A stretch of DNA of 64,000 nt from Cyclobacteriaceae bacterium (GTDB lineage Bacteria; Bacteroidota; Bacteroidia; Cytophagales; Cyclobacteriaceae), in NCBI GenBank assembly GCA_036273935.1, contig DASUGQ010000118.1, positions 4,474-68,473 of the forward strand, given 5' to 3'. Of the stretch, positions 17,884 through 36,810 are shown in pieces. The position numbers and the translations under genes are program-made. Position 1 is the first letter of the stretch. Each line of letters begins with the position of its first letter. Under the pieces are notes generated by a model. The model saw nothing but the letters and a program-made list of their open reading frames with translations. It ran no database searches and was not told the origin of the DNA.

Positions 17884-18014
17884 GTCCAGCATCGCAGGAT
17901 GATGTTTGACGTTGAGGGACAAAGAAAGTTAATTAATGGTAGACTCAAGACGCAAGTGGTTTCAGCTTCTATTTTCTATCGACGTGATTCTGAACGTCTT
18001 CGAAAAATCACTTC

Positions 18015-18531
18015 CTAAACCCGAACAAGGAATGATATTATCTAAGTAGGGTTCAATGGGGGTTTATAGGACGCAACCCATTGAGCCGCCATGCGTGACT
18101 CGGAACAGCGTGGACGGCAGCCTCCAACTCTCCCTTGCGATGTATTAGGAAACCTTGAGCCAGATCTTGACGTTATGTCAATATTGACATATATTTACAG
18201 GTGGAATGGGTACTCGAGATAAGCCGCTCGTTTGGCTGCAAGGTGAAATAAAGACGCCACCGTTTTCGGCTCAGGCAAGAATTGAAGTTGGCTATTTATT
18301 ACGACGCTTACAGAAAGGCGAGAAGCTATCCCTGCCGCATTCACGTCCTATGCCGTCTATTGGTGCAAGATGCCATGAGCTTCGGATTGTGGATGATGAT
18401 AAGATTTGGCGGATTGTGCATCGAATTGATAAAGATGCCATTTTGATTTTAGAAGTTTTTCAAAAGAAAACGCAAAAAACCCCATCGACAATTGCAAACG
18501 CCGGATTAAACAATATGATAGTTAAAGGAAA
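18015..18531 (+). repeat. Copy A of a roughly 0.5 kb direct repeat (leader plus HigB-like toxin gene)
   Basis: By eye it aligns along its whole length with 19074-19599, with scattered substitutions and several indels. Confidence 0.85.
18175..18190. promoter_or_regulatory. Perfect 16-bp palindrome ATGTCAATATTGACAT; candidate operator of the toxin-antitoxin promoter
   Basis: The site lies 16 nt upstream of the toxin ATG (18206). Copy B (19249-19264) has the same site with one mismatch. Type II antitoxins usually autoregulate through such palindromes. Confidence 0.5.
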
Positions 18532-18845: not shown

Positions 18846-19073
18846 ATTTCCGCATCAGTAAGTAGATGCAAAAGCTCTGGAAGTACACGAAATTCTCCTT
18901 GTCCCTATTGAATAGTTGTTCGAAGTAGGCTTCTTAATCCTGAAAAAAAACGCCAGAATGATACTTTTGCATTTGTTACTCGCACAAAGTTGAAAATTCT
19001 CAGGTCACCACACAATGGAGTAGTTCAGTTGTTCTCGACAGTATGGAGATACAGATGCAGTATGGTTTGAGCC

Positions 19074-19599: not shown

Positions 19600-19974
19600 A
19601 ACCTGACGATTTGGTCTCCGGTAAGTTTATCCACCCTGTTCTTGGTTATCTTTTTTTAGGAGACGAGTCGACCGCCGCCACTAGCGCTGCAGTTATAAGG
19701 GCAAGTTTCCTTTTTGCGCGTTCTTGTTCTTTATTATTTTCTTGTTGTTACGATTTTTTTTGCATATTTGAGCAGAATTTAAAGAATTTTTGATCGCCGT
19801 TAAAAAACATCTGACCTTGTAATTTCCGTTGATTGTGCCATTCAATACAATTTCACATTAACTCTCCGCTCGATGATGGGCCTGTCTTTTTGTTTTATCG
19901 CGACCTACTCGTCTGAAATGTGTATACGCGTGTTATTGCTTTAAAGAAAATCATAAAACGATAGTTAAGCATCT

Positions 19975-22452
19975 ATGACACTCCGCCTCTTGCTCTTTGT
20001 GCTTTGTCTTCCCATGATGGTCGCGGCGCAGACTTTTACCGATGTCACTCCAGGTGGTATACCTGCACTTGAGTCAGGAGACATTGCATGGGCTGACTAC
20101 AACAATGATGGTTATCTCGATTTTGCCATCATCGGCAAATCGGGAACCGGTAATTTCGGAGGCATTTACACTGGCGCCGGCAATGGCACGTTTCAGTTGC
20201 TTTTAAACAGCAACATGCCGAAGATGAGAACAGGCGATATCGACTGGGGTGACTTTGATCATGATGGTGATCTGGACCTGGCAATGATTGGAAGCATAGA
20301 TGCGACGCCTTGGTTTGTTACGGTCATCATGCGTAACAACATCACATCATTCGAACAATATTTTACGACAGAAGGGTCAGAAGGAGGTTCGTTGACATGG
20401 TTTGACTACGACAATGACGGAGACCTTGATCTTTACCAAGTTGGAGCGTTCTTCGTTAATCCATATCCTAATTCAGTTTTCATCAACTCGGACGGACAGT
20501 TTTCAACAGAAGACGTTTTCCACGTTAAAGGATATTATTCGGAGTTAGAGATTGATTTGACGGCTTGCATCGCCACGGATTTCGATAATGATGGTGATCA
20601 GGATATTTTTTCTTCAGGCAAATATAGTCACGGTGTATGGAACGAAGCCAGCCTACTTGTTAACAATGGTGATATGAGTATCGAAAACACCGATAAATAC
20701 CGTTTTTCATACCACGATGTGGCCATACGGACCGGATCTATTAATCAGGGCGATTTTAACAGAGATGGCCTGATGGATTATTTCTTAACGGGTAACAGCA
20801 GTTCTATCAGTGGTAAGGACACTCCCTTTTCACAAATGTTGTTTGGAACAGGTGATGGCAATTTCGCACGGCGTGGTAAATTGCTGGATGTGTATAACTC
20901 ATCAAGTGATGTTGGTGACATCGATAATGATGGTGACTTAGACATCATTGTTTCGGGCCAGGCGTCGGCAGGTGCCCTTACAAGGATTTACCTGAACAAT
21001 GGATCAGGAAGTTTTAATGATGCGGGTATCACAAATCTTGTAGGTCTTAGCCTCTGCTCGGTTACATTAGCCGACTATGATAATGACGGTGACCTAGATG
21101 TATTTATAACCGGCAGAGATCAAGCCAATGTAAAGACAACTAAACTTTATCGAAATAATCTTAGGTCAAATGCGCTTGCACCCAACGAAAAGCCTACTCC
21201 GCCTTCGAATTTGCGATTTAGGATGGAGAACAATACTGTCACACTGGAATGGGAAAGTGGAAGTGATAAAGAGACACCAACCGGTTCGCTTACCTATAAT
21301 GTATATGTTGCACTTGAATCAAAAAAACCATTCAAACTGTTTCCTCAGGCCATTGTAGAAACAGGTAAACGCAAAGTTTATGATCAGGGTAACACATCTG
21401 TCAATACACGTTGGACATTGAAAGGTCTGAAGACAGGCACTTACTATTTCTCAGTTCAATCAATCGACGGAGCAAATATGGGATCCGAATTTGCTGCCGA
21501 GGTATCTTTTAAGTACATCAGGATAGATTCGGTTGGATCCACATGTCCAAACAGCGAACAAGTATTCTCTGTTTCTCCAGCCAACAGTTATAACTGGACG
21601 ATTTCGGGAGGTAAAATAGTGGAGGGGCAAGGATCGGAAATGATTCGCGTGAAATGGGACGAACAACCGATCAGTCCTCAAATCACTGCCTCTACTGATG
21701 GGTCTTCGAATTCATTTATGCCATACGTACAAACACTTCCGCCAGCCGTTATCGTTGGGGCCGCAACTGTTTGTGATATGGAAGCTTATACCGAATATCG
21801 TCCGGCGAGTTATTCTCAAGACCTGTCGTACAATTGGAATATCGATGGGTTTGAATTCACCACCGCAGTGCCTTCGTTTGAATGGGCCTCACCAGGAAAT
21901 AAATTGGTGACATTATCAACTACCGACCTAAACACCGGCTGTAAGAATTCGGATACGATACATGTGGCAGTAGCCGAGCGTATATTGGTCGAAGTAAACT
22001 ACGATAACGGTGTGTATACATCGGAAAATACTGACGCTTCTTATGCATATAAGTGGGAGGGCTATATCAACAACGACTGGTCGACCGTCAGTACCGCGGA
22101 AAATTTTACGCCAACCTTTGCTGGCCTTTACCGTCTTACGATTACCAATCAATATGACTGTTCTTATGTCAATAATTTCTATGTGGATGAGATTATAACG
22201 GGGCTCGAAGAGCAGGCGGAAAGACTTCAGTTAGCGCCCAATCCGGCTGTCACTTCATTTAGAATTGTAAACTTGCCGCCAACAAGCAAACCAGTCAACG
22301 TTTCTGTAATTGATATGGCCGGGCGGACCATGTTTGCCACATCAACTACCGAGGATACAGATATCAATTGCTCATCATTGCACCGGGGAGTGTATGTTGT
22401 TGTAATCCGTTCGGGAGATAACGTTAACTATTCGAAAATCGTTATCGAATAA
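19975..22452 (+). CDS. Secreted FG-GAP/VCBS-repeat protein with FN3 and PKD-like domains and a T9SS C-terminal sorting domain
   Basis: It has a signal peptide and repeated 'DYNNDGYLD', 'DFDHDGDLDL', 'DYDNDGDLDL', 'DIDNDGDLDI' calcium-binding FG-GAP motifs. The C-terminus 'LQLAPNPAVTSFRIV...GVYVVVIRSGDNVNYSKIVIE' is a T9SS sorting domain. Confidence 0.8.
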   Translation: MTLRLLLFVLCLPMMVAAQTFTDVTPGGIPALESGDIAWADYNNDGYLDFAIIGKSGTGNFGGIYTGAGNGTFQLLLNSNMPKMRTGDIDWGDFDHDGDLDLAMIGSIDATPWFVTVIMRNNITSFEQYFTTEGSEGGSLTWFDYDNDGDLDLYQVGAFFVNPYPNSVFINSDGQFSTEDVFHVKGYYSELEIDLTACIATDFDNDGDQDIFSSGKYSHGVWNEASLLVNNGDMSIENTDKYRFSYHDVAIRTGSINQGDFNRDGLMDYFLTGNSSSISGKDTPFSQMLFGTGDGNFARRGKLLDVYNSSSDVGDIDNDGDLDIIVSGQASAGALTRIYLNNGSGSFNDAGITNLVGLSLCSVTLADYDNDGDLDVFITGRDQANVKTTKLYRNNLRSNALAPNEKPTPPSNLRFRMENNTVTLEWESGSDKETPTGSLTYNVYVALESKKPFKLFPQAIVETGKRKVYDQGNTSVNTRWTLKGLKTGTYYFSVQSIDGANMGSEFAAEVSFKYIRIDSVGSTCPNSEQVFSVSPANSYNWTISGGKIVEGQGSEMIRVKWDEQPISPQITASTDGSSNSFMPYVQTLPPAVIVGAATVCDMEAYTEYRPASYSQDLSYNWNIDGFEFTTAVPSFEWASPGNKLVTLSTTDLNTGCKNSDTIHVAVAERILVEVNYDNGVYTSENTDASYAYKWEGYINNDWSTVSTAENFTPTFAGLYRLTITNQYDCSYVNNFYVDEIITGLEEQAERLQLAPNPAVTSFRIVNLPPTSKPVNVSVIDMAGRTMFATSTTEDTDINCSSLHRGVYVVVIRSGDNVNYSKIVIE

Positions 22453-22616
22453 CATCGATAAAATATCTAAACGACACGAAGAAGATTTTTGGAGCAGGAC
22501 TTGAATACTTTCGATTTTATTTCCAATAATCAACTAAAACGTAATGGCTACTTCCCGATGCAAAATCTTCTCAAAACAGATACTCAGTACGTTAGGTTGG
22601 CCACGCAACAAACTAC

Positions 22617-22657
22617 CAACAAAATTCATCTAATCATCGCTAGAAAAAACTAAACAT
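22617..22657 (+). repeat. Left copy of an imperfect 41-nt direct repeat (36 of 41 identical to 35396-35436)
   Basis: caacaaaattcatctaatcatcgctagaaaaaactaaacat versus caacaaaaatcatctaatcatcaatagaaaaatcttaacat. They share an identical 13-nt core, tcatctaatcatc. Weaker similarity extends about 25 nt to the left. Confidence 0.8.
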
Positions 22658-22966
22658 CCCGAAAGAGATTTTTAGGGTTTTGTTGAGTGACAAAAGTAGA
22701 TATTCTGACGAAGAACGCCAAGAATTGGAGGAATGATAATTGATCCGGAGTGTCGCCTTGCTTGCCGCAAAGTCCACTCCGGCATTCGCTACCTACATTA
22801 GTTCGCATCGCCCGAAGCGGGACTTTACTTCTCACACCCTCTCTCCACTCGCGGCGCCCGCCGTTTCTCTCTGGGCGCCGGCTCGCAAAATTTTCTGCAC
22901 TACTTTCTCATTTGGCCGGAAATATGTATTTTTTGAGAATTTGTAAACACGTCACAATACCGTTAT

Positions 22967-24307
22967 ATGTCAGACACTATCGTTTACCACTACAATAGCC
23001 CTTCAGTTTTAAACAAGAATATCGATTCAGATGAACTTTTTCTCTCCAAATACAGTGAGGTCCAAAAGAAGGATGCACCTTGTTTCTTTTGGGGGAGTCT
23101 GAAAGATCCATACATCACTTCTCGTTGTTTAATAACACTCTCAAATGTAGTTCAGTCCTCATTCAATCTTTCTCCTTTCCAGATGGCGCTTCTCAAAGAC
23201 CCAATCGTTACGGCTGGAAATGAGAAAATTCGTTTTGAAGGTTTCTCCCATTGTGCAGGCGTATACGCGCGTGTTGATATTCTTCCTGATGGTCATGACG
23301 GAGAATTTCCGGAAAATGGAACGACCAACGTGGATTTCAATCAACCAATGATATCAGCGCTAAGCAGCGTGAACAGAACAGAGAAGGTTTTACTTTCTGT
23401 GGGAAAAAATGAGGTAGCCGTTTCTAAAGAAGGACAAAAAGTGGTTGAAAGAAAGGTCCCTCTCCCAGCAAAATGGATTAAAGGCTTAACAACTGTACAA
23501 CTATTCTTAGCTGAAGCCGAAAAGGTGTTTACGTTTAACAGAATTCAAACCCTTCAACTTTTCCAGAGCTTGCCGAATGGCAAACCAAAAACTGATTATT
23601 ACCTGACCACGAGGGCGGGTAAGCCTTCCTTCTCACCAGTAAAATCCGACAATGGTATTTGTATTGGTGGTATCCATCGCCTTCGCTTGCTGGAACCATT
23701 GATACCACTAGCAACGGAACTGAGAGTCTTTCCTCACCCAGCAATGCAATCGGTAACTTGGCAATTATACTTTGGAATGGTCCGATTTAGCTTGTCCATT
23801 TCGCGCGATGCTTGGAGAGGCTTTTCCGGAGAAGGTGCAGCGCTTGAGTCATTGATAGAGGATGTACCGGACGGTTGGATTGATGCTGTTGATAAGTTCA
23901 GTTATGCCAATCAGGAATTTAACCCAACCTTGCTTTCAGTTGAAGAGGGACTTGATTTAAAAAAGGTCGAGAACATAACAGGCCGCCTGTCAGCAATGGG
24001 ATTGCTGGGTTACGACCTGGACGAAAATCATTTTTTTTACCGCCGGCTTCCATTCAAGCTAAACCGGATTTTAAGTTTAAATCCACGCCTCAAAGATGCC
24101 GAAAAGTTACTACAGGAGAAAAAAGTGGAGATTACCCTTCAAACCGATAACAGAGTTGAGGCAAAGGTGCAAGGCAGTGGTGTTAATCATTTCATTGTAC
24201 TGGAAGGTGATAGTGAAAAATGTACCTGCACATGGTTTAGTAAACACCAGGGTGAACGAGGGCTCTGCAAGCATATCCTTGCCGTGAAGAAACAACTTAT
24301 AAGCTAA
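22967..24307 (+). CDS. SWIM zinc-finger family protein (large N-terminal domain of unknown function plus a C-terminal SWIM domain)
   Basis: The C-terminal 'CTCTWFSKHQGERGLCKHILAV' is the CxCx(n)CxH SWIM signature. The N-terminal block 'IRFEGFSHCAGVYARVDILPDG...GTTNVDFNQPM' is what I recall from bacterial stand-alone SWIM proteins. Confidence 0.85.
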   Translation: MSDTIVYHYNSPSVLNKNIDSDELFLSKYSEVQKKDAPCFFWGSLKDPYITSRCLITLSNVVQSSFNLSPFQMALLKDPIVTAGNEKIRFEGFSHCAGVYARVDILPDGHDGEFPENGTTNVDFNQPMISALSSVNRTEKVLLSVGKNEVAVSKEGQKVVERKVPLPAKWIKGLTTVQLFLAEAEKVFTFNRIQTLQLFQSLPNGKPKTDYYLTTRAGKPSFSPVKSDNGICIGGIHRLRLLEPLIPLATELRVFPHPAMQSVTWQLYFGMVRFSLSISRDAWRGFSGEGAALESLIEDVPDGWIDAVDKFSYANQEFNPTLLSVEEGLDLKKVENITGRLSAMGLLGYDLDENHFFYRRLPFKLNRILSLNPRLKDAEKLLQEKKVEITLQTDNRVEAKVQGSGVNHFIVLEGDSEKCTCTWFSKHQGERGLCKHILAVKKQLIS

Positions 24308-24319
24308 TCATCAACTTTA

Positions 24320-27274
24320 ATGGTATCAGAAGAATTCAGCACGATCCTGAAAAAGGAGCAGTTGAGACAATTGATTCCCTTTTTAAAATCGTTGGAAAAA
24401 AGTGACAAAAAGGAAATCGCCTCGTTGTTAAAACCGCTGGCAAAGGAGTATTTGGATTACCTACCAGTAACTCCATTGTTAGGGACAACAACCTATAAGC
24501 AGAAAGCCACACCCAGCCAGGTGAATATTTTATATGCGGCAGCATTCGTGTGCTTAAATCGGAAAGACTATCAGAAATTTGACCGGTTTGGCCACATGCT
24601 AAACAATAAAATTCTTGACGACATACTTCCTTGGTATTGCCCGGATTGGTTTAGTGATTCGATCAATGATTTAACCAAACGGGATTGGATTCCATGGAAT
24701 TTTGGATACAAGGATGCTATGGCATTGGCGGAAAAAGGGCACCTAAATCCTAGTGATGAACTTATCGTCAAGCTTATTCCACAGATGATTTTCGAACAAG
24801 ATGCCAAACACAAATTTTTATATCTTCCTCAGCAACTCAGGAAACGACCCATTACACTTGAAAAACACATTTGGCTGATCTTTCAATTTGAAACCACTAT
24901 TAATTATAGTGATCGTTATCACCAATTTCAAAACGCCAATAAGGATGAACGTCTTTGGATAACTGCTTTAAAACAATGTAGCAACGACGGATTGTTAGAT
25001 AGGCAGCGCTTACTTAGAGAATCGATTCTGGCCACAGGTCGTAATTTCAACAAAGCTTTGTCAGGGTGGTTCGTTGAACTGTTTGAGTTTTTAGAGCCCA
25101 CGGAACAAGAACTAATAACATTGCAGCCCGAATTGTTCAACGTATTAAGCTCCCAACAAAGCAAGGCAATCAATTCCGCTTTAAATTCACTCAAGAAGAT
25201 TGTTGAGGAAAAAGAGTTTAATGCGGTAGGTTTTCTAGAGAACGCGCCGATACTCCTTTCTTGTGAAACCAAATCAGTGGTTTCATCGACTCTTTTGCTG
25301 TTTGAGAAGATACTCCGTAAAAATGCTTCGCTCAAAGAAGAAATTTGCATAGCGACATGCCAGGCATTCATACACAATGATGAGAATATTCAAAATAAGG
25401 CATCTAAATTATTATTGAAGTGTCATGATGATTCTTTAAGGTCAGTAACGGAGGAGATCACGAAGTACGCTGACTCCATGTTAATGACTTCAAAAAAAAT
25501 TTTATCAGACTTTCTCGCTGTCACACCGAAGCAGCAAGAGGACAACATAACCGACACCTCAGAATCGAATGAAGCTATTGGTACAGGTCAGGAAATCACA
25601 TCGCTTGATGAGCTGATCTTTTTAGCCAGTCAGGCTTTCGATAACAATGACCCGCTACACATTGACCTTCTGCCTGCAGCACTGGTTAAACTGCAGGATC
25701 AAATAACCGGTTCGGTTCTTCATAAGTTTGAACCGGCACTACAGAGAGCCTATTCTTTTGTGATGAATGATTGGCCTTCAACCATGGGTTATTTGGACCA
25801 TCTGTTAGCAACATTCTTTCTTGATTTGACAAATTTATTGATTGACCGATTCCCAACCGAAGGTTCATCATTGAAACAAATTCACGTATCATTTCAAAAG
25901 AAGGATGCTGAAAGCAAGGCTAAATGGTCTTGGTACAACTCAAGAATTTTAAACTTACCAACCTGGTCGGTGCATAGTAGGGACACGACCTATATAATCC
26001 ATAAGGCTATCCTGCTCATCGCATATGAAAAGATAAAGAACGCAGATCATCTGTCCATCCTTTCAACACCAACCCACGAACATGGTTATCTGGATCCGAT
26101 GGTACTGGTTAATCGTTTGGAGCTTTATCAGGGCAAAACCGTGTTACCTGATAACTATGATTTTCAACTGGCAATTTCGCGGGTCGCTCCCTTTAATCAC
26201 GACGAAGCATTGAAGGAAGCAAGAAAAACGTTAAAGGGGGAGGTCCTTCAAATTATGGAATTCCTTTTGGATAAAGACGAACAACCAAGACCACCATTCA
26301 ACACACCTTCCTTATGGTTTATGGCCGGTGTCACCAAATCACCTCAGCACACCTATCCGGAGTTTGATCATTTCTTTTATGCGACATTGCCAAAATCAAC
26401 TTTTACAGGAGATGTCCCATGGCGTTCTTTTGTTGAGCATTATAAGACAACAAGATACAATTATGAAAAGCGGACTCCTGAGGAAGTCACTGCTCAGCAC
26501 AATGTTCTCAGGTTAACTTTAAATCCATATCCGTCGATCTGGCAGGAACCGGAGGAAAAGAAAGAAAGCGTGCTGTCAAAGCTTACAAGTCTGATCTCGA
26601 CACCTAAGAAAGCCAGACGAGAGGACACATTTATCCAACACGAGTATCTCTCATTAAAAACACCTTACATTGCTGCAGAGCATAACGACATACAGCGTTT
26701 TATCTATCTGTTTCCTTCGAATCCAAATCCAGTGCTCACCCTCGTCGCACACAGAGCACTGGTACATAGCACGCTTGCCTCGGAAAACGACAAGAAGATT
26801 TTAACCAGGACGCTGGAGGCCATTATTCACCTGAAATTCGATTTTTCTGAGATCACGCATCTTTTTATTGCCACATGCATGCTGACCAGTGACAAGACCG
26901 TGAGATCATTTGCAGCGGAGATGTGGATCCAGGGAGTCAACAACGGGAAGATAAATAATGAGCAAACCGGTAAAATTATTGGGATTCACTTTTCCAGCGG
27001 CTACGCTCCTTTGAAAAGATTCACTGACCTTGTTTCAAGCAACCTGTTGAAAATCTCACAAACGCACAATATAGAACTGGAAGCTATCCTTACTGCCGTC
27101 ATTGAAAATCTACCAACAGAGCCTCCGGTAGGCACGAAAAGACTACTTGAATTGTATTCAGAAGTTTTAGCACTGAATAACGCCTCTGTTGCTTCGAATT
27201 CAGCCAAACAACGCCTGGCGTCATGGACTGCTTCATCTGGGCTTAAAAAGCTTATTTCATCTTTGCCCGTCTGA
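24320..27274 (+). CDS. 984-aa helical-repeat protein of unknown function, partner of the SWIM protein (possibly DUF6493/DUF4132-like; unverified)
   Basis: It starts 12 nt after the SWIM stop and has no signal peptide or transmembrane segment. I recognised no Walker A, nuclease or other catalytic motif. The composition is Leu/Lys/Glu-rich, as in HEAT/ARM-like repeats. Confidence 0.7.
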   Translation: MVSEEFSTILKKEQLRQLIPFLKSLEKSDKKEIASLLKPLAKEYLDYLPVTPLLGTTTYKQKATPSQVNILYAAAFVCLNRKDYQKFDRFGHMLNNKILDDILPWYCPDWFSDSINDLTKRDWIPWNFGYKDAMALAEKGHLNPSDELIVKLIPQMIFEQDAKHKFLYLPQQLRKRPITLEKHIWLIFQFETTINYSDRYHQFQNANKDERLWITALKQCSNDGLLDRQRLLRESILATGRNFNKALSGWFVELFEFLEPTEQELITLQPELFNVLSSQQSKAINSALNSLKKIVEEKEFNAVGFLENAPILLSCETKSVVSSTLLLFEKILRKNASLKEEICIATCQAFIHNDENIQNKASKLLLKCHDDSLRSVTEEITKYADSMLMTSKKILSDFLAVTPKQQEDNITDTSESNEAIGTGQEITSLDELIFLASQAFDNNDPLHIDLLPAALVKLQDQITGSVLHKFEPALQRAYSFVMNDWPSTMGYLDHLLATFFLDLTNLLIDRFPTEGSSLKQIHVSFQKKDAESKAKWSWYNSRILNLPTWSVHSRDTTYIIHKAILLIAYEKIKNADHLSILSTPTHEHGYLDPMVLVNRLELYQGKTVLPDNYDFQLAISRVAPFNHDEALKEARKTLKGEVLQIMEFLLDKDEQPRPPFNTPSLWFMAGVTKSPQHTYPEFDHFFYATLPKSTFTGDVPWRSFVEHYKTTRYNYEKRTPEEVTAQHNVLRLTLNPYPSIWQEPEEKKESVLSKLTSLISTPKKARREDTFIQHEYLSLKTPYIAAEHNDIQRFIYLFPSNPNPVLTLVAHRALVHSTLASENDKKILTRTLEAIIHLKFDFSEITHLFIATCMLTSDKTVRSFAAEMWIQGVNNGKINNEQTGKIIGIHFSSGYAPLKRFTDLVSSNLLKISQTHNIELEAILTAVIENLPTEPPVGTKRLLELYSEVLALNNASVASNSAKQRLASWTASSGLKKLISSLPV

Positions 27275-27368
27275 TATCCAGGCTGCGACGGATGCATGTA
27301 AGAAAAACATCTTAATTGTGTGGTTTGATTTTATATGAATGAACATTTTTGAACCTCAACAATTAATA

Positions 27369-29333
27369 ATGGAGTCGTTGCCGGCAATCGTAAAAAGACT
27401 AAAATTAATTCTGGCCTTAGTAATCCTCTTACTTTCTGGTTGCAGGGAGGAAGATCAGGTGAAAAATACCCTGGAGGGAATAGTGAAGGATGAATTCGGT
27501 GGAGTATTAGATAGTGTGAACTGCGTCGTTTCGTCTGCGTCGTTTCATTACTCAACACTAACAGATGAATTTGGAAAATTTCGAACACCAAAAATTAACA
27601 CAGGTAAATACTCAGTCACCATTTCAAAGCCAAACTACTCAACGCGAAACACCGAAGTAGAGGTAAAAGCAAATCCCACCATAGTCGAGTTTGTCCTTTC
27701 ATCTGATAGTTCATTTCTAAGATTGAGCGATTCCACATTGAATGTTAATTATCTTTCGGCGTCTAAGGAAATTTTAGTCGAAGCAAATACAAGTTGGACG
27801 ATATCTAGCGATGCCTCATGGCTCAAAGTTTCTACAAATCAAGGTTCCGGTAACCAGCTTATCAGTGTAACATGGCAAGAGACGAGGGAGGATAACAGCA
27901 GAATTGGAATGATTTCTCTAAGGTCCAAATTCATTGAAAGAAAGCTTAAAGTATTCCAATCACCTCCACTTAAATTGCTCAACGTGAATTACTTTGCCGA
28001 TAACAAGGAAAACGAAAGTTTGGATTCAATTAGTTTGCAATTTACCAAGCCAGTAGCAGATGCTGTGGTATTACCAAACGGTGGACTGCTCAATGAAGAA
28101 ATTAATTACAAGATCAATCGGAATATTCTGACTTTTCCATATGAGAAAGCAAAACTAGGGGATGAGCACCTTTTTAGCGTGTCAGTTTATGATGGTCCGG
28201 ATTTATATAATTTTGAATTCACCGCACAGTTTTACACAGCCAAGTTAAATCTTCCGGGCTATGTAGTTGATTACACGCTCAGTGATGACAACAAGATAAT
28301 TTGGGCGGTAACCCAATATCCAAATAAAGTGTTTAAGATTTCAGTGCCAGATTTAATGATATTAAGGGAACAAAATCTTGATTTTGAGCCTCTAAAGATT
28401 AAGTGGAATAGCTTTCAAAATAAACTAAATATCTTTGATGCTGCACCCGGCTGTAACTGTGAAGAAATTGCTGGAGGTAATTGCAAAGATAATTATCTAT
28501 TGTATTTTGATCCAGACGATTTCAGCGTTGGCAAATCGGAAATAAAGATGATAGAAGGTTACGATGACGATTGCTACCGTTTTGGTGACCCCTATGTATT
28601 TCCTAAAGATATTTGCTTGCTTGCCAATGGTACTGGATTAATAAAACTGGCTGATAGAGATCTCAATCTCAGTTGGCGATTTATAGACAGCAACCATTTT
28701 GACTCGACGTTTATATCGGGAAGTAATACCGATATTCGTTATGAGGGAATGCACGTAAATTACGACAGGTCAAAAATTTATGTGCACGATCAGGCAAGCG
28801 TTTATGTATTTGAGCCAGAAGACTCAACTTTTAGGCAGTATAATTCGCCCTTTACTGGACAAGTAGGTTTTATTATTCCTCATAAGAAAAAAAATCTCCT
28901 CTACCATCATGAATATCCTCAGTTCATTTCCGACGGAAACGGCTATATAAGTTATAAGTCCTACATTCAGACGGTGAATCAATATAATGAAGCTATGGAT
29001 TTTAGCTATAAAGCGGACGAAGAGCAGTCTATGTATTATCTTAAGGATGGACTATTTCAGATCATGGATTACGAAAGAGCACTTACAACCTTAAAGACTG
29101 ATGCGATAATTGATTTGACAAATATACGATCCGCTACAGATGGAGTTTATTTTACAGCAATCAAGAGAAATGACGACGGCTCTACAGATTTTTTCATTTT
29201 TGACACATCGATCATATCAAACAAAATTCCGACTTCAGACTCTGCCGGCAGAATTCGGTCTAATAATACAGACCAATCATTGTGGATGGTGAATAGCCTG
29301 GATAAAGTTCTTCAGAGTGAACGTGAAACCTAA
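27369..29333 (+). CDS. Lipoprotein with a CarboxypepD_reg-like domain and a BACON domain
   Basis: 'MESLPAIVKRLKLILALVILLLSGC' contains a lipobox (the track start is 27339). 'LEGIVKDEFGGVL...GKYSVTISKPNY' fits CarboxypepD_reg. 'EILVEANTSWTISSDASWLKVSTNQGSGNQLISVTWQETRED' fits BACON. Confidence 0.7.
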   Translation: MESLPAIVKRLKLILALVILLLSGCREEDQVKNTLEGIVKDEFGGVLDSVNCVVSSASFHYSTLTDEFGKFRTPKINTGKYSVTISKPNYSTRNTEVEVKANPTIVEFVLSSDSSFLRLSDSTLNVNYLSASKEILVEANTSWTISSDASWLKVSTNQGSGNQLISVTWQETREDNSRIGMISLRSKFIERKLKVFQSPPLKLLNVNYFADNKENESLDSISLQFTKPVADAVVLPNGGLLNEEINYKINRNILTFPYEKAKLGDEHLFSVSVYDGPDLYNFEFTAQFYTAKLNLPGYVVDYTLSDDNKIIWAVTQYPNKVFKISVPDLMILREQNLDFEPLKIKWNSFQNKLNIFDAAPGCNCEEIAGGNCKDNYLLYFDPDDFSVGKSEIKMIEGYDDDCYRFGDPYVFPKDICLLANGTGLIKLADRDLNLSWRFIDSNHFDSTFISGSNTDIRYEGMHVNYDRSKIYVHDQASVYVFEPEDSTFRQYNSPFTGQVGFIIPHKKKNLLYHHEYPQFISDGNGYISYKSYIQTVNQYNEAMDFSYKADEEQSMYYLKDGLFQIMDYERALTTLKTDAIIDLTNIRSATDGVYFTAIKRNDDGSTDFFIFDTSIISNKIPTSDSAGRIRSNNTDQSLWMVNSLDKVLQSERET

Positions 29334-29528
29334 TCGATTCTTATCCAACGTCAACTCCGTAAAAACCGGATACAATAGCGGCGCGCCCGCGCAAAGCCAA
29401 TCTCCACCTTCAACCAGTGGTAATGTTTTTTTCGGTCGTGCCCCTGCTTTCCTCTAACCGTTTAAAGTATCCTGTTAAGCTTTTTTAAAAGCGTCATTTC
29501 AGCTACCTTCAAACAAAACTAAGACCCT

Positions 29529-30491
29529 ATGCCTTCAATAGTAGAAACACCTCCGGTAGAGGTGCAACAAGAACTTGCCCTACTTCGGCAAGATCTTCAT
29601 ACTTTGATCCCCTCAAAACAACTAACCGGAAATGTTCTTATTGCCACTTGGAACATTCGCGCTTTCGGCGATCTCACAGAAAAATGGGAAGCAGCGGAAA
29701 ATGATTCCCCCAAACGAGACCTTCATTCATTGCTGGCGATCGCAGAGATAATTTCGCATTTTGACATTATCGCTGTCCAGGAGATTAGGGGAAACATCAA
29801 ATGCCTTCGTCATATGTTGAAAGTCTTGGGACGCGATTGGAATTTCCTGATGACCGATGTAACACGCGGCAACGCTGGTAACAACGAACGTATGGCCTTT
29901 CTCTACGACACGAGGAAAGTCAATTTGTCGGGGCTCGCCTGTGAGCTTGTGGTACCGAATGAGTGGCTCAATCGCATTGGAGAAAACGCGCTGACCAGGC
30001 AATTCGCTCGCACCCCCTATGCAGTGAGTTTCAGGGTAGGCGGCAAAACGTTTGTGTTGATAACCTTACACGTGCTTTATGGGGACAATGCCGCAGCACG
30101 CATACCCGAACTAAAGGCGATTGCCGAATGGGTGGCAGACTGGGCTAAGGAACTGCATTCTTGGGATCACAGCCTTATTGTATTGGGGGACTTCAATATC
30201 GAAAAAATAGGAGATCCAACCTATGAAGCTTTCACATCAACAGGGCTTACCGTTCCAGCCGAACTGCAGAACATTCCAAGAACAATATTCAAAAATTCGT
30301 ATAGCTTCTACGATCAAATTGCCTGGTTTGTAGATAGCCTGGCTCGACCGGAATTATCATTGACCTTCACACGGGGCAACATTTACAATTTTGTGGGTAA
30401 AGTCTTAAATAACAGAAACTACACTAACACCCAGCTTTCGCATCGAATTTCTGACCACTTTCCGTTGTGGGCAGAGTTTTCAACATTATAA
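29529..30491 (+). CDS. Endonuclease/exonuclease/phosphatase (EEP) family protein, DNase I-like, with no signal peptide
   Basis: It has the motifs 'IATWNIRAFG', 'IIAVQEIRG', 'LGDFNI' and 'SDHFPLWAEF'. Confidence 0.8.
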   Translation: MPSIVETPPVEVQQELALLRQDLHTLIPSKQLTGNVLIATWNIRAFGDLTEKWEAAENDSPKRDLHSLLAIAEIISHFDIIAVQEIRGNIKCLRHMLKVLGRDWNFLMTDVTRGNAGNNERMAFLYDTRKVNLSGLACELVVPNEWLNRIGENALTRQFARTPYAVSFRVGGKTFVLITLHVLYGDNAAARIPELKAIAEWVADWAKELHSWDHSLIVLGDFNIEKIGDPTYEAFTSTGLTVPAELQNIPRTIFKNSYSFYDQIAWFVDSLARPELSLTFTRGNIYNFVGKVLNNRNYTNTQLSHRISDHFPLWAEFSTL

Positions 30492-30755
30492 AAACTCAAA
30501 TTTCCTTATTCAGCTCCGTTTCAATTTCATTGTCGATTTCTTCATAAAACTTTCTTGTCCCGACATACATTTGATTTTTGTTCTTAGCATCGGAAAAAAT
30601 TTCGCCATGCTTCCCAGATGACGACGTTGCTGCCCTTAAGCCTTCGCAAACCCATTCAAAAGATTCGAATTAAATGATTAGATTTGAGGCTGTGAAATCT
30701 TCCTTCTTTAGCCAAGAGATCGCTTGGAACGTACTGTTAGCCGTAATTGAAACAT

Positions 30756-31361
30756 ATGATTTCCATCTACAAGATTAAGCCTAAATTTCAGCAACTTCTC
30801 AACCCTATTTTAGTCAGCCTCCATAAAAATGGAGTGACGGCAAATCAGATCACGATATCATCCATTGTTCTGTCGTTTCTAATTGGTGTGGCATTCTGGT
30901 ACGCGAAAGCCAACAGGTTGCTGTTCCTGAGTTTACCAATAGGGTTGTTAGTTAGAATGGCACTAAATGCGCTCGATGGAATGATGGCTAGGACTTACAA
31001 TCAACAATCTAAAAAAGGCGAGGTATTAAATGAGTTGGGTGACGTAATTTCTGACCTCGCAATATTTTTCCCCTTGCTCGCCTTCGAACAAAACAATATC
31101 TTCTTAATCGTTGTCTTTCTCTGTCTGAGTATTATCAATGAATTTGCCGGCCTCCTTGGGAAAGTAATATCGGGCCATAGGAGATACGATGGGCCGATGG
31201 GGAAGAGCGATCGGGCCTTTGTCATGGGGTTGTATGGTATCCTTTACTTTCTTGATGTTGGCTTAAGTAGCATATCAGTTTGGATTTTCACTATAATTAA
31301 TCTTTTGCTGGTCGTCAGTACAACGATCCGAATATTCAAATCGCTTCAACCCCATGAATGA
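30756..31361 (+). CDS. CDP-alcohol phosphatidyltransferase family protein
   Basis: 'LNALDGMMARTYNQQSKKGEVLNELGDVISD' approximates DG..AR..(8)G...D...D, and Asn sits where the first Asp of DxxDG is usual. The protein is a multi-pass membrane protein. The track start at 30747 is TTG; an ATG lies at 30756. Confidence 0.75.
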   Translation: MISIYKIKPKFQQLLNPILVSLHKNGVTANQITISSIVLSFLIGVAFWYAKANRLLFLSLPIGLLVRMALNALDGMMARTYNQQSKKGEVLNELGDVISDLAIFFPLLAFEQNNIFLIVVFLCLSIINEFAGLLGKVISGHRRYDGPMGKSDRAFVMGLYGILYFLDVGLSSISVWIFTIINLLLVVSTTIRIFKSLQPHE

Positions 31362-32307
31362 AATTCTTGAATTAAGATATTTCAAACAAAACGATCTACT
31401 GATCATCGTAGCATTGATTTTTGCTCTTTTGATCTTGGCTTCGTCATTGATATTTGTTATAGGCCGCATTAACTCTAAGGCTAAGCTTGAAGAGCTTAAG
31501 GCCCGCACCAAGTCATGGTGGATAATGGCAACAGTTTTTATTGGGGCTACGATTTTTAATACCACAATCTCCTATATCGCGATTGCTTTTCTTTCATTCG
31601 TGGCATTCCGCGAGCTGTACTCTCTTTTGGGTTTCCGGCAATCAGATCGCCGGGCAATCTTTTGGGCGTTCGTTTCAATTCCAATTCAATATTATCTGGC
31701 TTTCATTGGGTGGTATGGGGCGTTCATCATTTTTATTCCAGTAGTCATGTTCTTACTGCTCCCGCTGCGCCTTGTGCTAAAAGGAGAGACGTCTGGAATT
31801 ACCAAGTCAATGTCTATGCTACAATGGACACTGATGTTAACGGTTTTTGGCATTAGTCATCTGGCTTACCTTTTATCTCTTCCTGACATCGAAGGATTTA
31901 ATTCAGGAGGAAGGGGTCTGTTGCTATTTGTTGTCTTTCTGACGGAGATCAATGATGTGCTTCAATTTACTTGGGGGAAGCTTCTCGGTAAAAATAAGAT
32001 CATACCAAAAGTAAGTCCAAACAAAACATGGGAAGGATTTCTCGGTGGCCTTGTCTGTACAACTGGCATAGGGTATTTCCTCGCTTTCTTGACCCCTCTT
32101 ACCACCTACCAGGTTCTCATGGTCAGTTTTCTAGTTGCTCTTGCCGGGTTCATTGGTGACGTGGTTATGTCGGCCATCAAGCGAGATATCGGCGTAAAAG
32201 ACACCGGTACATCAATACCGGGCCATGGCGGTATTTTGGACCGCATTGATTCACTCGCTTACACCGCACCTGCATTTTTTCACCTGGTATATTATCTAGC
32301 ATACTAA
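31354..32307 (+). CDS. cdsA: Phosphatidate cytidylyltransferase (CDP-diglyceride synthase)
   Basis: It carries the signature 'SAIKRDIGVKDTGTSIPGHGGILDRIDS' and 'KTWEGFLGG'. It overlaps the upstream gene by 8 nt. Confidence 0.85.
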   Translation: MNEILELRYFKQNDLLIIVALIFALLILASSLIFVIGRINSKAKLEELKARTKSWWIMATVFIGATIFNTTISYIAIAFLSFVAFRELYSLLGFRQSDRRAIFWAFVSIPIQYYLAFIGWYGAFIIFIPVVMFLLLPLRLVLKGETSGITKSMSMLQWTLMLTVFGISHLAYLLSLPDIEGFNSGGRGLLLFVVFLTEINDVLQFTWGKLLGKNKIIPKVSPNKTWEGFLGGLVCTTGIGYFLAFLTPLTTYQVLMVSFLVALAGFIGDVVMSAIKRDIGVKDTGTSIPGHGGILDRIDSLAYTAPAFFHLVYYLAY

Positions 32308-32943
32308 ATGAAGAAGCTGGTCTTACAAATCACCTTTGGTTTTTTCATTAGATATTTTTTGAAGGTAATCGTTGGTGTGAGATTTAGTGAAGCGAAATTC
32401 TTAAGTAAAGAAAAACAGTTTATCATTGTCGCAAACCACAATAGCCATTTGGATACGATGAGCCTGATGGCCTCAGTTCCAAGGAGCATCGTACATAGAG
32501 TCAGACCAGTAGCCGCTCAGGACCATTTTGGTAAAACCAAAGTTCAGGAGGTATTTAGTAATTTTTTCATTAATACCTTGTTGATCACGAGAAAGCGGAA
32601 AAAAAACAACTCCGCTGTGGATCCTGTTAGTAAGATGATACAAGCTTTGGATGATGGTTATTCTTTAATAATTTTTCCCGAAGGTACGAGAGGAGAGCCC
32701 GGCAAAGAGCAACCCTTAAAACCAGGTGTAGCACTAGTTCTCAGGCAGCGACCAGAAGTTAAATATGTTCCGGTATTTATGACCGGCATGGGAAACGCTA
32801 TGCCTAAAGGAGATAGCCTTATTGTTCCCTATAATGCTCATGTGACCTATGGAGCACCAAAGAAAATCATGAGTACAAATGTTGAGGATATCTTGACGCA
32901 GATTCACAACGACCTTAACCAGTTAAAGCAGCAACACCCCTAA
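32308..32943 (+). CDS. Lysophospholipid (1-acyl-sn-glycerol-3-phosphate) acyltransferase family protein
   Basis: It has the HX4D motif 'NHNSHLD' and 'FPEGTRG'. It starts immediately after the cdsA stop. Confidence 0.8.
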   Translation: MKKLVLQITFGFFIRYFLKVIVGVRFSEAKFLSKEKQFIIVANHNSHLDTMSLMASVPRSIVHRVRPVAAQDHFGKTKVQEVFSNFFINTLLITRKRKKNNSAVDPVSKMIQALDDGYSLIIFPEGTRGEPGKEQPLKPGVALVLRQRPEVKYVPVFMTGMGNAMPKGDSLIVPYNAHVTYGAPKKIMSTNVEDILTQIHNDLNQLKQQHP

Positions 32944-32954
32944 CTCCAACCATC

Positions 32955-33578
32955 ATGAAATTATTTTTGTCCATTTTCTTAGTCTTCTTAATGCTTTCTT
33001 GTACTGATAGGAAGGACGATATCAAAGAAGAGCCTGAGGTTTCCGACGCAACTCCGGAAGCTCTAGAAAGAGATAAAAGTGAATTTCAATTAAGATCACT
33101 TGGCAAGAGATATAGTGAAAACATAATTGAGGAGCTTTTTAGGGAGGCGATGGAAAGCGATTCTCAGCTGGGTAAGCTTGTTGAGGACTATGACCAATTG
33201 ACTGAAGCGAAATCAGACAGTCTCGAAGAATATATTGACTACAAACAGAACAACATTCGCTACTGGTCAGCTACGGAAAGGTACATTAGCCAATTAAGCG
33301 ACTCAACTCTCAAACATGAAATGAAGTCCGCGTTTGATGTTCTGAAAAAGAAATACGATGATCGAATATCAAATCATGAACTGGCGTTGAACGAATTAGC
33401 GAAAAAAGAGCAGATGTTAAAGGACTTGGAAATAATCATGAAGTTGATGGTGACAGAACCAATGATGAGTAACTACCAGAGGAATGAAATACCAGGTGTC
33501 ACAACCATCCATGGAGTATCAAAAGGATATGACACGTTAATCTCAAGAACAAGGAAATACACGACGATAAAAAAATAA
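32955..33578 (+). CDS. Lipoprotein of unknown function, predicted helical or coiled-coil
   Basis: It has the lipobox 'FLMLSC' and a charged helical sequence. It lies 11 nt after the acyltransferase gene. Confidence 0.5.
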   Translation: MKLFLSIFLVFLMLSCTDRKDDIKEEPEVSDATPEALERDKSEFQLRSLGKRYSENIIEELFREAMESDSQLGKLVEDYDQLTEAKSDSLEEYIDYKQNNIRYWSATERYISQLSDSTLKHEMKSAFDVLKKKYDDRISNHELALNELAKKEQMLKDLEIIMKLMVTEPMMSNYQRNEIPGVTTIHGVSKGYDTLISRTRKYTTIKK

Positions 33579-33727
33579 CCCATTTGTCAAATCTGCAAGG
33601 AGTCAGTTGATAATTCTTGCAGTTACATTACACTATAGGAATGGAGGGACAAAATTAGTTTAAATACTGAGCATTTTTTTGCAAAAGGTGACATTTTAAG
33701 GTACTTTTCGCACAAAATTGCTCAAGT

Positions 33728-34546
33728 ATGGCTAAAAATACGCCAAATGGAAGTGTAAGCGAATGGGTGGACAATCTGTTAACAAGGGGCAAAAATGCTT
33801 TCTCCCTTCAGCAAATGCGAGAGTCGTTTCCAGATCATTCCGAAGCAGCTATGAAGCGGGCTTTAAGCAGGCTTTCGTCGAAGAACAAAATCGTATCTGT
33901 TCATAAAGGATACTATGTAATTGTATCATATGAGCACGTTGCGAAAGGAATTGTTCCACCGCTTTTATATATCGATGGACTTATGAAATTTTTAAACAGG
34001 CCTTATTACGTAAGTCTGTTGAGTGCAGCAGCTCTGTATGGAGCAGCGCATCAGGCACCACAGGTATTCATGGTGAACACAACTTTTCCTGCGCTGCGTG
34101 TGAGCAAAAAGAAAAATGTCAGAATAAAATTTGTCCCGGTAAAAGAAATCCCAACTTCCTTATTAGAACAGAAGAAAACAGAGAGTGGGTACGTGCACAT
34201 ATCCTCACCGGAGCTTACAGCTATTGATTTGATCAATTATGCAAAGCATGTAGGTGGACTGAGCAGGGCGGCAACTGTTATTAATGAATTGGCTGACGAC
34301 ATGCGACCTGAAAAAATTGATAAGCAGCTAGCCCGACATGCAGAGACAGCAACACTTCAACGACTTGGATACATTGCCGATCAAATCCTTCATCGGAATG
34401 ATCTGGCCGACGCCATTGAAAACATTTGTAAAAAAATGAACTTGAAATTTTATAGGGTTTCTTTAATGGCAAAGGGCAAGCGTTATGGTTATCCTTGCAA
34501 CGAGCGTTGGAAAGTCATTGAAAACAGCATGATTGAAATAGACTGA
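33728..34546 (+). CDS. abiEi: AbiEi-family antitoxin/transcriptional regulator (type IV toxin-antitoxin or abortive infection)
   Basis: It has an N-terminal winged-helix region 'LQQMRESFPDHSEAAMKRALSRLSSKNKIVSVHKGYYVIV'. It overlaps the AbiEii start (TGATG). Confidence 0.8.
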   Translation: MAKNTPNGSVSEWVDNLLTRGKNAFSLQQMRESFPDHSEAAMKRALSRLSSKNKIVSVHKGYYVIVSYEHVAKGIVPPLLYIDGLMKFLNRPYYVSLLSAAALYGAAHQAPQVFMVNTTFPALRVSKKKNVRIKFVPVKEIPTSLLEQKKTESGYVHISSPELTAIDLINYAKHVGGLSRAATVINELADDMRPEKIDKQLARHAETATLQRLGYIADQILHRNDLADAIENICKKMNLKFYRVSLMAKGKRYGYPCNERWKVIENSMIEID

Positions 34547-35331
34547 TGATACCCATTAAACATATACAAGAGTGGAGTCATTTTGCGCCCTGGCAGGACA
34601 ATTATCAAATCGAGCAGGATCTTGTCATTTCAAGAGTGCTGGTGGAAATTTTCGCTGACCCTTTTCTGAAGGAACGTCTGGCTTTTCGTGGGGGCACTGC
34701 TTTACATAAATTATTTCTTAAAGAGCCTGCACGTTACTCTGAAGACATTGACCTGGTTCAGATTACCGGCGGACCCATCGGTGAAATACTAGACCGCCTG
34801 AGAATGGTTCTAAGTTGGTTCGAAAAGGTGAATGTTGAACGAAGTGAAATTACCAGCACCATGATTTTCCGATACGAGTCGGAAGCCGAACCTAAAGTGA
34901 AGCGGAAGCTGAAAGTAGAGATAAATGCAAGAGAGCACTTTGCCTTATTAGGTTACAATAAAATTTTCTTCGAGGTCAAATCTGAATGGTTTACGGGTGC
35001 AACTGAAATTCCATCTTTTTATATTGAAGAAATGCTTTCAACAAAACTTCGTGCGTTGTTTCAGCGAAGGAAGGGCAGGGATTTATTTGATCTCTACTGC
35101 GCGCTTACTGAAAATGAAATAGACTCGGCAAAGGTGATTGCTGGATTTCATGAATATTTGAAACGAGGGGACAACACGATAACGGCAGCCAATTTCATGC
35201 AAAACTTGGATGAGAAAGTGGTGGATGCGAACTTTCTAGGAGACATTGAAGCGCTCATCAGGCCGGACGTAAAATATGAAAGCCAAAAGGCCTACGAATT
35301 GGTAAAGGCAGAATTGATAGAAAAAATTTAG
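34546..35331 (+). CDS. abiEii: AbiEii/AbiGii-family nucleotidyltransferase toxin (DUF1814)
   Basis: It has the motifs 'LAFRGGTALHKLF' and 'RYSEDIDLV', which are typical of the AbiEii nucleotidyltransferase fold. Confidence 0.85.
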   Translation: MIPIKHIQEWSHFAPWQDNYQIEQDLVISRVLVEIFADPFLKERLAFRGGTALHKLFLKEPARYSEDIDLVQITGGPIGEILDRLRMVLSWFEKVNVERSEITSTMIFRYESEAEPKVKRKLKVEINAREHFALLGYNKIFFEVKSEWFTGATEIPSFYIEEMLSTKLRALFQRRKGRDLFDLYCALTENEIDSAKVIAGFHEYLKRGDNTITAANFMQNLDEKVVDANFLGDIEALIRPDVKYESQKAYELVKAELIEKI

Positions 35332-35395
35332 ATGCGAAATGTAACCTTTGTTAGTAGCCAGTTAGTTTATTTATGTATGTCAAGGAACAAAGCAT

Positions 35396-35436
35396 CAACA
35401 AAAATCATCTAATCATCAATAGAAAAATCTTAACAT
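35396..35436 (+). repeat. Right copy of the imperfect 41-nt direct repeat
   Basis: See 22617-22657. It lies between the AbiEii stop and the integrase stop. Confidence 0.8.
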
Positions 35437-35468
35437 GCTTAGCTCGCATTTTGCCCATCTAAACGCAC

Positions 35469-36626
35469 TTATCGTTCAAAAACTGGTAACTTGTTAATGG
35501 CCTGGACTTTTAACTTGTCTGTCATATGAGCATATCGTTCGGTTGAAACAACATGCTTGTGTCCCAATAATTTCGAAACTGTATAGATATCTACACCGTG
35601 CGAAAGCAGGAGTGTGGCATGGGTGTGCCGCGCTGAGTGAAATGTAATTTTCTTCGATATACCTGCCGCAATAGCCCATCGGCAAAGTTCTATTGCAGTT
35701 TTGGAGCTATATTTAAGCTCCTTGAAAATTAGCTGATGAACTTCGAAGGGAGCACCAAGTAATTCTTTCGCTTGTGGTGTTATGGGAACAACATGATGGT
35801 GCTTCGTCTTTCGTTGTTTGAAGTGAAGATACCATCCATCAACTTCATTGCCTTTTACCTCTTCCCAGTTTAAGTGTGCAATATCAGACCATCTTAGTCC
35901 AGTCAGTACACAAAACAGGAATGCATCCTTCAAGACAGGTTGATCGCATTTTGTCACTACGAGTCGTTTTACTTCGTTCAGTGTGAGAAACTCGCGCATA
36001 GTACTTTCCGCACGGATGGGCCGCGCGAGGTTAGCCGGATTGCGTTCGATAAGTCTGCGCTCATAAGCAGTCGTTAATGCAGCGCGTACTTTATTAAAAT
36101 AGGAGAGAGCTGTATTTGAACTAAGTCTTTGTTTCCCGGTTCGCCTATCAACCTCAAGCAAATAACTTCTGAACTCTTCTAGCCAAATGTCGTCAATCTC
36201 CTGAAGTGTTGGGTTATCGTCACGAAGAAAGACCAACACATGCTTGAAGGCAGAAGCCCAGTTGCCAGCGTTATTGTCAAATCGAATCTTTTCACTGGCG
36301 AGTTCAGCAAAGAAGTCTCTGAATTTTGGGCGAGGTTTTACAACAGCAGAACCATGGAGCCCGGTCTGTAATTCAAGAATCCTTTTGTACTTGATTTGCT
36401 TGGCAAGTTCAAGCGTTGTTTTGTTTTCGATTATCGCGAGATCATCCGTTGGTGGATTGAGATACAACTTCAAGAAGTCGTAGGAGCGTTTACCGTTCCA
36501 ATACGTGTCGAGGTAAAGTGAGTAGCCGCCATTTTTGATTCGTCTCTGGCGTAAGCGGACAGGGTCTTTTCGATTGAGATCTGCGTTTATAACTATACTA
36601 TAAAAAATTGGGATAACATTTTCCAA
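35469..36626 (-). CDS. Tyrosine site-specific integrase (phage integrase family, Bacteroidota type with an N-terminal arm-binding domain)
   Basis: It has 'RLRQRRIKNGGYSLYLDTYWNGKRSYDFLKLYLNP' and the catalytic region 'TFHSARHTHATLLLSHGVDIYTVSKLLGHKHVVSTERYAH'. The start codon is uncertain, because the track start is TTG. Confidence 0.85.
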   Translation of the reverse strand: MENVIPIFYSIVINADLNRKDPVRLRQRRIKNGGYSLYLDTYWNGKRSYDFLKLYLNPPTDDLAIIENKTTLELAKQIKYKRILELQTGLHGSAVVKPRPKFRDFFAELASEKIRFDNNAGNWASAFKHVLVFLRDDNPTLQEIDDIWLEEFRSYLLEVDRRTGKQRLSSNTALSYFNKVRAALTTAYERRLIERNPANLARPIRAESTMREFLTLNEVKRLVVTKCDQPVLKDAFLFCVLTGLRWSDIAHLNWEEVKGNEVDGWYLHFKQRKTKHHHVVPITPQAKELLGAPFEVHQLIFKELKYSSKTAIELCRWAIAAGISKKITFHSARHTHATLLLSHGVDIYTVSKLLGHKHVVSTERYAHMTDKLKVQAINKLPVFER

Positions 36627-36810
36627 GAGCTGACGTAACTGATGAATATCCCACTGGCGGTTACCTAACTTATATAAGGGTAAGCCTTCCGTTTGTTGTT
36701 CGTTTGCATTGAAAAATTTTTAAAAGGCTTCGTTTACTACTTTGTCATTGTAAGTTTAGTTAAAATCAAGTAGGTAGTTACTTTGTTAATCACGTCTCTC
36801 ACGTTAAAGA

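Follow-up and report, generated by a model that had tools for sequence, protein, structure and literature searches.

A direct repeat beside a truncated integrase gene in a Cyclobacteriaceae genome probably marks a decayed stack of mnmE-targeting islands

The accretion-decay model of the evolution of integrative and conjugative elements (ICEs) and integrative and mobilizable elements (IMEs) is exemplified by ICESt1/ICESt3 and the cis-mobilizable elements (CIMEs) at the 3' end of fda in Streptococcus thermophilus, while heterobivalent tyrosine integrases of Bacteroidota elements are represented by IntDOT of CTnDOT and IntN1 of NBU1. In Gammaproteobacteria, the islands SGI1 and MGIVchHai6 use the trmE (mnmE) gene's 3' end as their site (PMC7449626). 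Here, we analyze a 64,000-nt stretch of DNA, called the window throughout (C118:4474-68473), from the metagenome-assembled genome (MAG) of a Cyclobacteriaceae bacterium (genome label G000; 5.5 Mb in 559 contigs), in which an imperfect 41-nt direct repeat brackets a block of cargo genes next to a tyrosine integrase gene. Our best explanation, which we hold with good though not full confidence, is that both repeats are copies, homologous to each other, of the integrase-distal arm in an island family that targets mnmE and that the window contains an accreted, decayed stack of such islands.

The repeat had first been noticed from the sequence alone in what we call the original prediction, and its basic description proved accurate: Positions 22617-22657 and 35396-35436 form a gapless alignment with 36/41 identical bases and have in common an exact 13-mer, TCATCTAATCATC, that occurs twice in the window, where about 0.1 matches would be expected by chance even with one mismatch allowed. 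The reported leftward extension of this similarity was also found by a repeat search, in which the pair reaches 66 nt at 79% identity (22592-22657 / 35371-35436). We searched the whole MAG for further copies of the repeat and other genomes for the same element. The repeat is not a unique pair, since the genome-wide search gave two more copies, and the 41 nt are the most conserved part of two copies of a ~190-nt island end-piece. We refer to this module as the "arm" and to its copies as A, B, and C (contig C118) and D (contig C469), with B containing the left and C the right repeat:

22527..22732, plus strand: arm copy B, a full-length integrase-distal island end including the left repeat (nhmmer profile hit at C118:27000-27205, E=1.7e-54).
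22548..22565, minus strand: core of arm B, TTTTGCATCGGGAAGTAG, reading F C I G K stop (direct sequence reading).
22691..22721, minus strand: candidate Bacteroidota-type promoter motif in arm B, TTG-20 nt-TACTTTTG, pointing to the core (consensus match).
35331..35441, plus strand: arm copy C, decayed and with its promoter side cut off, including the right repeat (nhmmer model positions 34-139, E=7e-07).
C118:981-1200, outside the window and close to its left edge, same strand as B and C: arm copy A (genome search).
C469:5471-5642: arm copy D (genome search).

Copies A, B, and D align over ~170-190 nt that they have in common, while C is well kept only in its middle part. Beyond the source genome, 1-9 copies per genome were found in six other MAGs of Chryseolinea, Chryseosolibacter, and Ohtaekwangia (74-88% identical to arm B), with eight further arm loci in Chryseolinea, Chryseosolibacter, Ohtaekwangia, and Cytophagales MAGs; one Chryseolinea MAG (G031) has 2 full and 2 partial copies on one strand of a single contig. 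The original prediction had held that a repeat dispersed through the genome would speak against island borders. The arm is such a dispersed element to the letter, but the dispersed element is itself the island border, so that the reading of the repeats as att-like stands.

What this border is became apparent from the DNA around the integrases. A conserved stretch upstream of the integrase genes ends in GATCAYTTCCCGATACAAAA, and these ~17 nt recur as the left end of the arm. Read on the minus strand, the shared core bases TTT TGT ATC GGG AAG TGA encode the C-terminal end of MnmE (F C I G K stop), so that every arm begins on its left with the reverse complement of the C-terminal codons of mnmE. 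At two loci (G031 and contig C162 of G061), next to the core comes a 453-aa gene, which was assigned to mnmE by Pfam. Clean occupied mnmE sites were seen three times, in G031 (24.8 kb), at G061:C162, and at L048, and all three have direct repeats copying the mnmE end with an intact mnmE at one junction; the window holds arm-side cores only. At L048, a 16-bp exact direct repeat, ATTTCCCGATACAAAA, bounds a 7.2-kb arsenic-resistance island at mnmE. The mnmE gene of the source genome is found on contig C490, where it ends in TTTTGCATCGGGAAATAA, and this end matches both G031 junctions, which are separated by 24.8 kb, the two matches overlapping by 14 nt at the core, in an empty-versus-occupied comparison that runs across genera at 77% identity and not between strains. 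The layout of core, arm, and integrase side in the clean cases identifies the arm as the integrase-distal end of an mnmE-targeting island. It follows that the repeats do belong to the attachment-site DNA of integrase-driven islands, as the original prediction had suggested with its att-like scars, but the 41 nt themselves are neither crossover nor scar; the crossover core is likely the copy of FCIGK-stop that lies ~70 nt left of the 41-nt repeat, at 22548-22565 in B.

Several further observations concern this target. The L048 island (L048:8361-15549) carries ArsR, a methyltransferase, a Pyr_redox protein, LMWPc, an SBF/ACR3-type transporter, and an extracytoplasmic function (ECF) sigma factor; it is the cleanest member seen and probably still mobile. 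On C490 of the source genome (C490:1349-3322), a gene for an excisionase-like helix-turn-helix (HTH) protein lies behind mnmE, with ~130 nt of conserved mnmE-downstream DNA in between. Contig C116, which overlaps C490 by 141 nt, encodes two integrases that are 49% and 36% identical to that of the window (C116:1-2100); C490/C116 is another island lineage at the mnmE hotspot. With integrases of 37-40% identity behind mnmE in G062 and G064, and the 49%-identical one on C116, several lineages use this site. A tRNA or tmRNA as the target of the island was ruled out, as ARAGORN found neither in the window nor around any arm copy.

The second constant companion of the arm is the integrase:

35469..36626, minus strand: tyrosine integrase of the mnmE-targeting family, 5'-truncated (Pfam; relatives 67-89% identical).

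Pfam bears out its identity as a tyrosine integrase (Arm-DNA-bind_5, Phage_int_SAM_5, Phage_integrase). The gene had been described as starting 33 nt from the right repeat; since it lies on the minus strand, this nearest end is the stop codon, and arm C ends 28-33 nt before it with its promoter side missing. In other islands, the DNA right behind the stop codon of the integrase was examined for an arm copy as well, and none is present there. Homology of the window integrase to its relatives stops at 36588, and the native MPRKRN start, the promoter, the integrase-side arm, and the second core are all gone, suggesting that this integrase is probably dead. Its close homologues (67-89% identical) lie 0-13.5 kb right of an arm and on the opposite strand in 7/7 loci, namely G031, two loci of G061, G065, G064 (a stub), and both loci of the source genome. 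The second of these is arm D, where tblastn with the window integrase revealed a 41-codon integrase fragment directly beside the arm. Similarity of DNA between loci is limited to the arm, the integrase gene, and ~250 nt upstream of the integrase, while the genes in between are unrelated. The original prediction had taken the integrase for part of a neighboring element or for an enzyme acting in trans, but it belongs to a family that always accompanies the arm. More distant integrases (59-63% identical to that of the window) also occur directly after mnmE, and no arm was found within 10 kb of them. As a separate observation, four TTGTTAC heptamers, two direct and two inverted (TTGTTACtcgaTTGTTACtatgg..ctcgaGTAACAAaaagtaccgGTAACAA), lie ~50-100 nt upstream of the integrase start at L038, L040, L041, L039, and G031; given a background rate of 0.28 per kb, this cluster is a candidate operator or cluster of arm-type binding sites. 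The heptamer was also tried as an arm-type site common to both arms and dropped, since the distal arm has only 0-2 copies, inconsistently.

We therefore had to ask whether the simplest reading of the geometry could hold, in which B and C would be attL and attR of one 12.8-kb island and the neighboring integrase would excise a circle joining 35436 to 22617. Direct repeats that bracket low-GC accessory genes next to an integrase are just what such an island would look like, yet B and C represent one and the same end type, in which the arm lies to the right of the core, while the other end in complete relatives is a different sequence of ~130-250 nt upstream of the integrase. B retains an intact core and C a ruined one; the degenerate version of C at ~35326-35341 overlaps the AbiEii stop codon and reads TTT CGC ATC TAA (F R I stop) on the minus strand, and the integrase lacks both a start codon and its arm. 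Moreover, C matches B at 36/41 and 52/66 positions and matches L026, a copy in another MAG, at likewise 36/41 and 52/66, while B reaches 39/41 and 60/66 with foreign arm copies and is thus closer to them than to C. Because C matches B no better than a foreign copy, B and C are family members and not twin scars of one integration, and we regard the single-island reading as very improbable. The same comparison speaks against a recent local duplication by recombination, which the original prediction had offered as another possibility.

The arm itself has content that needs an explanation. Near its right end, a minus-strand TAnnTTTG is found in 10/11 full copies, with CAAA..TA invariant and both nn positions variable, and a TTG lies exactly 20 nt upstream of it in 8/11. 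From its match to the known Bacteroidota consensus, TTG-N20-TAnnTTTG may well be a promoter. This conserved motif, the patchy and multi-copy distribution, and copies with no nearby integrase (A and the array in G063) would also suit an independent, dispersed small-RNA gene or regulatory repeat with its own promoter that islands merely use as a landing pad. However, an Rfam search of four arm copies gave no hit at E<=1, RNAalifold yielded only -0.87 kcal/mol with 0 compensatory pairs and thus no conserved structure or covariation, and the arms have no open reading frame (ORF) in common, the 31-codon frame of B being broken by indels and stops in other copies; a known small-RNA family or structured minus-strand RNA and a small conserved ORF were accordingly discarded as candidates. 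The arm also sits on the island side of the core, where the body of mnmE sits in attB, its end copies the last codons of mnmE, and arm and integrase move together from genome to genome with differing cargo, all of which makes a landing pad of this kind highly unlikely.

We therefore return to the arm as an island end, with the following model. These islands of soil Cytophagales related to Chryseolinea, Chryseosolibacter, and Ohtaekwangia integrate into the last ~16-18 bases of mnmE (trmE). In the orientation of the window, a complete integrated island runs from the native mnmE-downstream flank through the core, the ~190-nt arm, and variable cargo of 3-13 kb to the integrase on the opposite strand, an integrase-side arm of ~130-250 nt, the core again, and mnmE. 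A heterobivalent tyrosine integrase whose N-terminal domain binds the arms would carry out recombination between the core of attP and the 3' end of mnmE. The arm makes up the attL side when the island is integrated and belongs to attP when it is free, and mnmE stays intact because the island brings substitute last codons. The minus-strand promoter of the arm would read across the core and, only in the excised circle, into the integrase gene. Repeated integration at the same core together with loss of inner integrases would then build a stack in direct orientation in which each unit starts with an arm.

In the window and just left of it, A, B, and C are indeed co-oriented on one contig, and two further features complete the picture:

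17957..18017, plus strand: orphan remnant with the last ~60 nt of an integrase-side arm and a truncated core (..ATCACTTCC) (similarity, profile).
22750..35331, plus strand: cargo block of 12.6 kb with defense and lipid genes (Pfam, GC content, genome comparison).

The orphan remnant directly follows gene debris already pointed out in the first reading of the sequence; it is 90% identical over 59 nt to the DNA just upstream of the G031 integrase and matches the profile of the integrase-side arm (P-arm) with nhmmer E=6e-10. Under the proposed model, unit 1 would comprise arm A, a polysaccharide utilization locus (PUL), the gene debris, and the orphan piece of integrase-side arm, and units 2-3 would be arm B with its 12.6-kb cargo and decayed arm C with the 5'-truncated integrase. 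The stack would thus hold at least two or three co-oriented units that were parted from mnmE by a later rearrangement or later insertions; the order of the accretion events is what we infer from this layout. The stack is no longer beside mnmE and probably immobile. The alternative of a tandemly accreted island, which the original prediction had raised, was therefore right in kind, with tandem accretion as the best reading of the locus.

Co-oriented arrays also occur elsewhere, with four copies next to an integrase and mnmE in G031, two copies in G062, and two arms 1.2 kb apart at L020. On contig C25 of G063, five co-oriented arms (L045/L046, G063:C25:3353-29384) lie within 18 kb left of mnmE, and none of the integrases of this family is found on that stretch; a glutaminyl-tRNA synthetase gene is located between two of these arms. 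Such arrays could be thought to grow without decay if arms were cassette-type recombination sites at which a resident integrase at mnmE serially captured integrase-less units of arm and cargo, similar to an integron or CIME. Inner arms directly follow the preceding cargo gene without integrase debris, with 0 nt from the AbiEii stop to core C, the partial copies in G031 lie 70-80 nt after gene ends, L020a and L020b enclose a 1.2-kb two-gene unit, and the five arms of G063 are there with no integrase. These clean junctions from gene end to core leave room for a capture of integrase-less units. Against this, the last 36-60 nt of the integrase-side arm are kept at two junctions (G063 at 21.2 kb and L027) as well as in the orphan remnant at 17957-18017, as would be expected of decayed tandem islands, integrase stubs persist at D and L023, and no free circle of arm plus cargo has been observed so far. 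Remnants of integrase-side arms together with integrase stubs favor the accretion of whole islands followed by decay, and we consider stacks built by capture unlikely, albeit worth keeping in mind. A more far-reaching version, in which the arm would be a dedicated capture site of an integron-like platform whose promoter fires through the core and reaches the integrase gene in no other setting than the excised circle or tandem junctions, as a built-in expression switch, appears to us as a rather speculative and still less probable prospect.

Accretion followed by decay of whole islands has its own difficulties. No trace of an integrase is left in the inner units, even immediately before the next core, which needs either very clean deletions or the capture of units that never had an integrase, and the 4.5 kb between the 17957-18017 remnant and arm B are not explained by simple head-to-tail accretion. 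Furthermore, mnmE is absent from the window, and its integrase is flanked neither by an integrase-side arm nor by a second core on the right, so that island status here rests on homology with intact relatives, and every genome in the comparison set is a MAG. For 25469-36859, an independent Logan contig is 100% identical, and the arrangement there is therefore not peculiar to the MAG assembly.

The cargo of the second unit encodes an 82-aa ORF, a SWIM protein, a DUF6493/7824/7825 protein, a CarboxypepD_reg/BACON protein, an EEP nuclease, a phospholipid cassette of three enzymes, and AbiEi/AbiEii; the Pfam matches (SWIM, DUF6493/7824/7825, CarboxypepD_reg/BACON, EEP, CDP-OH_P_transf, CTP_transf_1, acyltransferase, AbiEi/AbiEii) agree with the gene content first assigned to the block. 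Its GC content is ~0.40-0.42, compared to 0.43-0.46 in the flanks. Seven same-genus genomes lack the cargo block at the DNA level, EEP paralogues excepted, and the arm was not found in 7/7 of those searched. An empty site with a single repeat copy, which the original prediction had hoped to see in related genomes, did not turn up among them, since only a MacB gene (90% identical, G007) and EEP paralogues match and the flanks are unrelated.

Other parts of the locus are described here for completeness. Between the orphan remnant and arm B (18018-22452), we found two HigB/HTH modules and an FG-GAP/PKD protein of the type IX secretion system (T9SS). Right of the integrase, the MacB/FtsX permease gene that matches G007 is split into two ORFs (37017-39224 and 36811-37050, within 36809-39365), and MacB-type genes recur as cargo in the arrays of G031, G061:C268, and G063. 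Long runs of same-strand genes right of the window and on C469 were considered as a conjugative element and turned out to be ordinary chromosomal genes (for example, aconitase, ClC channel, cbb3 oxidase). Two further diverged remnants of integrase-side arms without an integrase (C228:9151-9389 and C481:5239-5370) indicate that relics of the island family are scattered in the source genome.

Where there was an unexplained repeat, our results define an island family whose target is named and whose recognizable ~190-nt end-piece and cognate integrase can be used to delimit accessory DNA, and the cargo delimited in this way in poorly studied soil Cytophagales includes defense genes, PULs, and arsenic resistance. 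For the neighbors within the block, namely the SWIM pair, EEP nuclease, lipid cassette, and AbiE, this means that they should be viewed as cargo of a (probably) dead island and not as a co-evolved operon. In Gammaproteobacteria, the 3' end of mnmE is familiar as the site of SGI1; Bacteroidota islands land there frequently too, with at least two or three integrase lineages competing for it. If the reading as a capture platform were true, Cytophagales would have an integron-like platform for gene accretion. Integrons are defined by an IntI-type integrase, by attC sites that form hairpins from imperfect palindromes, and by cassettes that are mostly single and promoterless. The locus does not qualify as such, since its integrase has a domain for arm binding, a conserved fold is lacking in the arms, the units comprise several genes on either strand, and the integrase is located downstream of the array and oriented toward it.

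The comparison with described systems helps to place the family. Like in SGI1 and MGIVchHai6, the last mnmE bases are duplicated as direct repeats while the gene stays intact, a tyrosine integrase is encoded next to mnmE, and the variable cargo includes defense and resistance genes. Unlike these islands, the family of the window is found in Bacteroidota (Cytophagales), its integrase is of the Bacteroidota Arm-DNA-bind_5/SAM_5 type, its long conserved integrase-distal arm carries the promoter motif, and nothing points to dependence on a helper plasmid. Membership among the SGI1/MGIVchHai6 islands, defined by an int-xis-mobI/oriT backbone and mobilization by IncA/C plasmids, is set aside by gene content: Pfam searches of all ORFs of 22750-36626 gave no xis, relaxase, or Mob domains, and no mobI/oriT was found in the block. 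With IntDOT and IntN1, the window integrase shares an N-terminal arm-binding domain, a SAM-like core-binding domain, a catalytic domain, and long att arms, whereas its family targets the 3' end of a protein gene instead of GTTNNTTTGC-type sites or tRNA-Leu and, unlike in CTnDOT and NBU1, no conjugation or mobilization genes were found near it by Pfam. As a stack, the locus compares to CIMEs and accretion arrays: It consists of tandem, co-oriented, att-bounded units with inner units that lack an integrase. In CIMEs, such units likewise lie in tandem at the 3' end of one gene with directly repeated and progressively decayed att copies, while the stack of the window has come to lie away from its target gene and reiterates only one kind of arm. 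Viewed against these systems, the locus is an ordinary if neat kind of mobile-DNA fossil.

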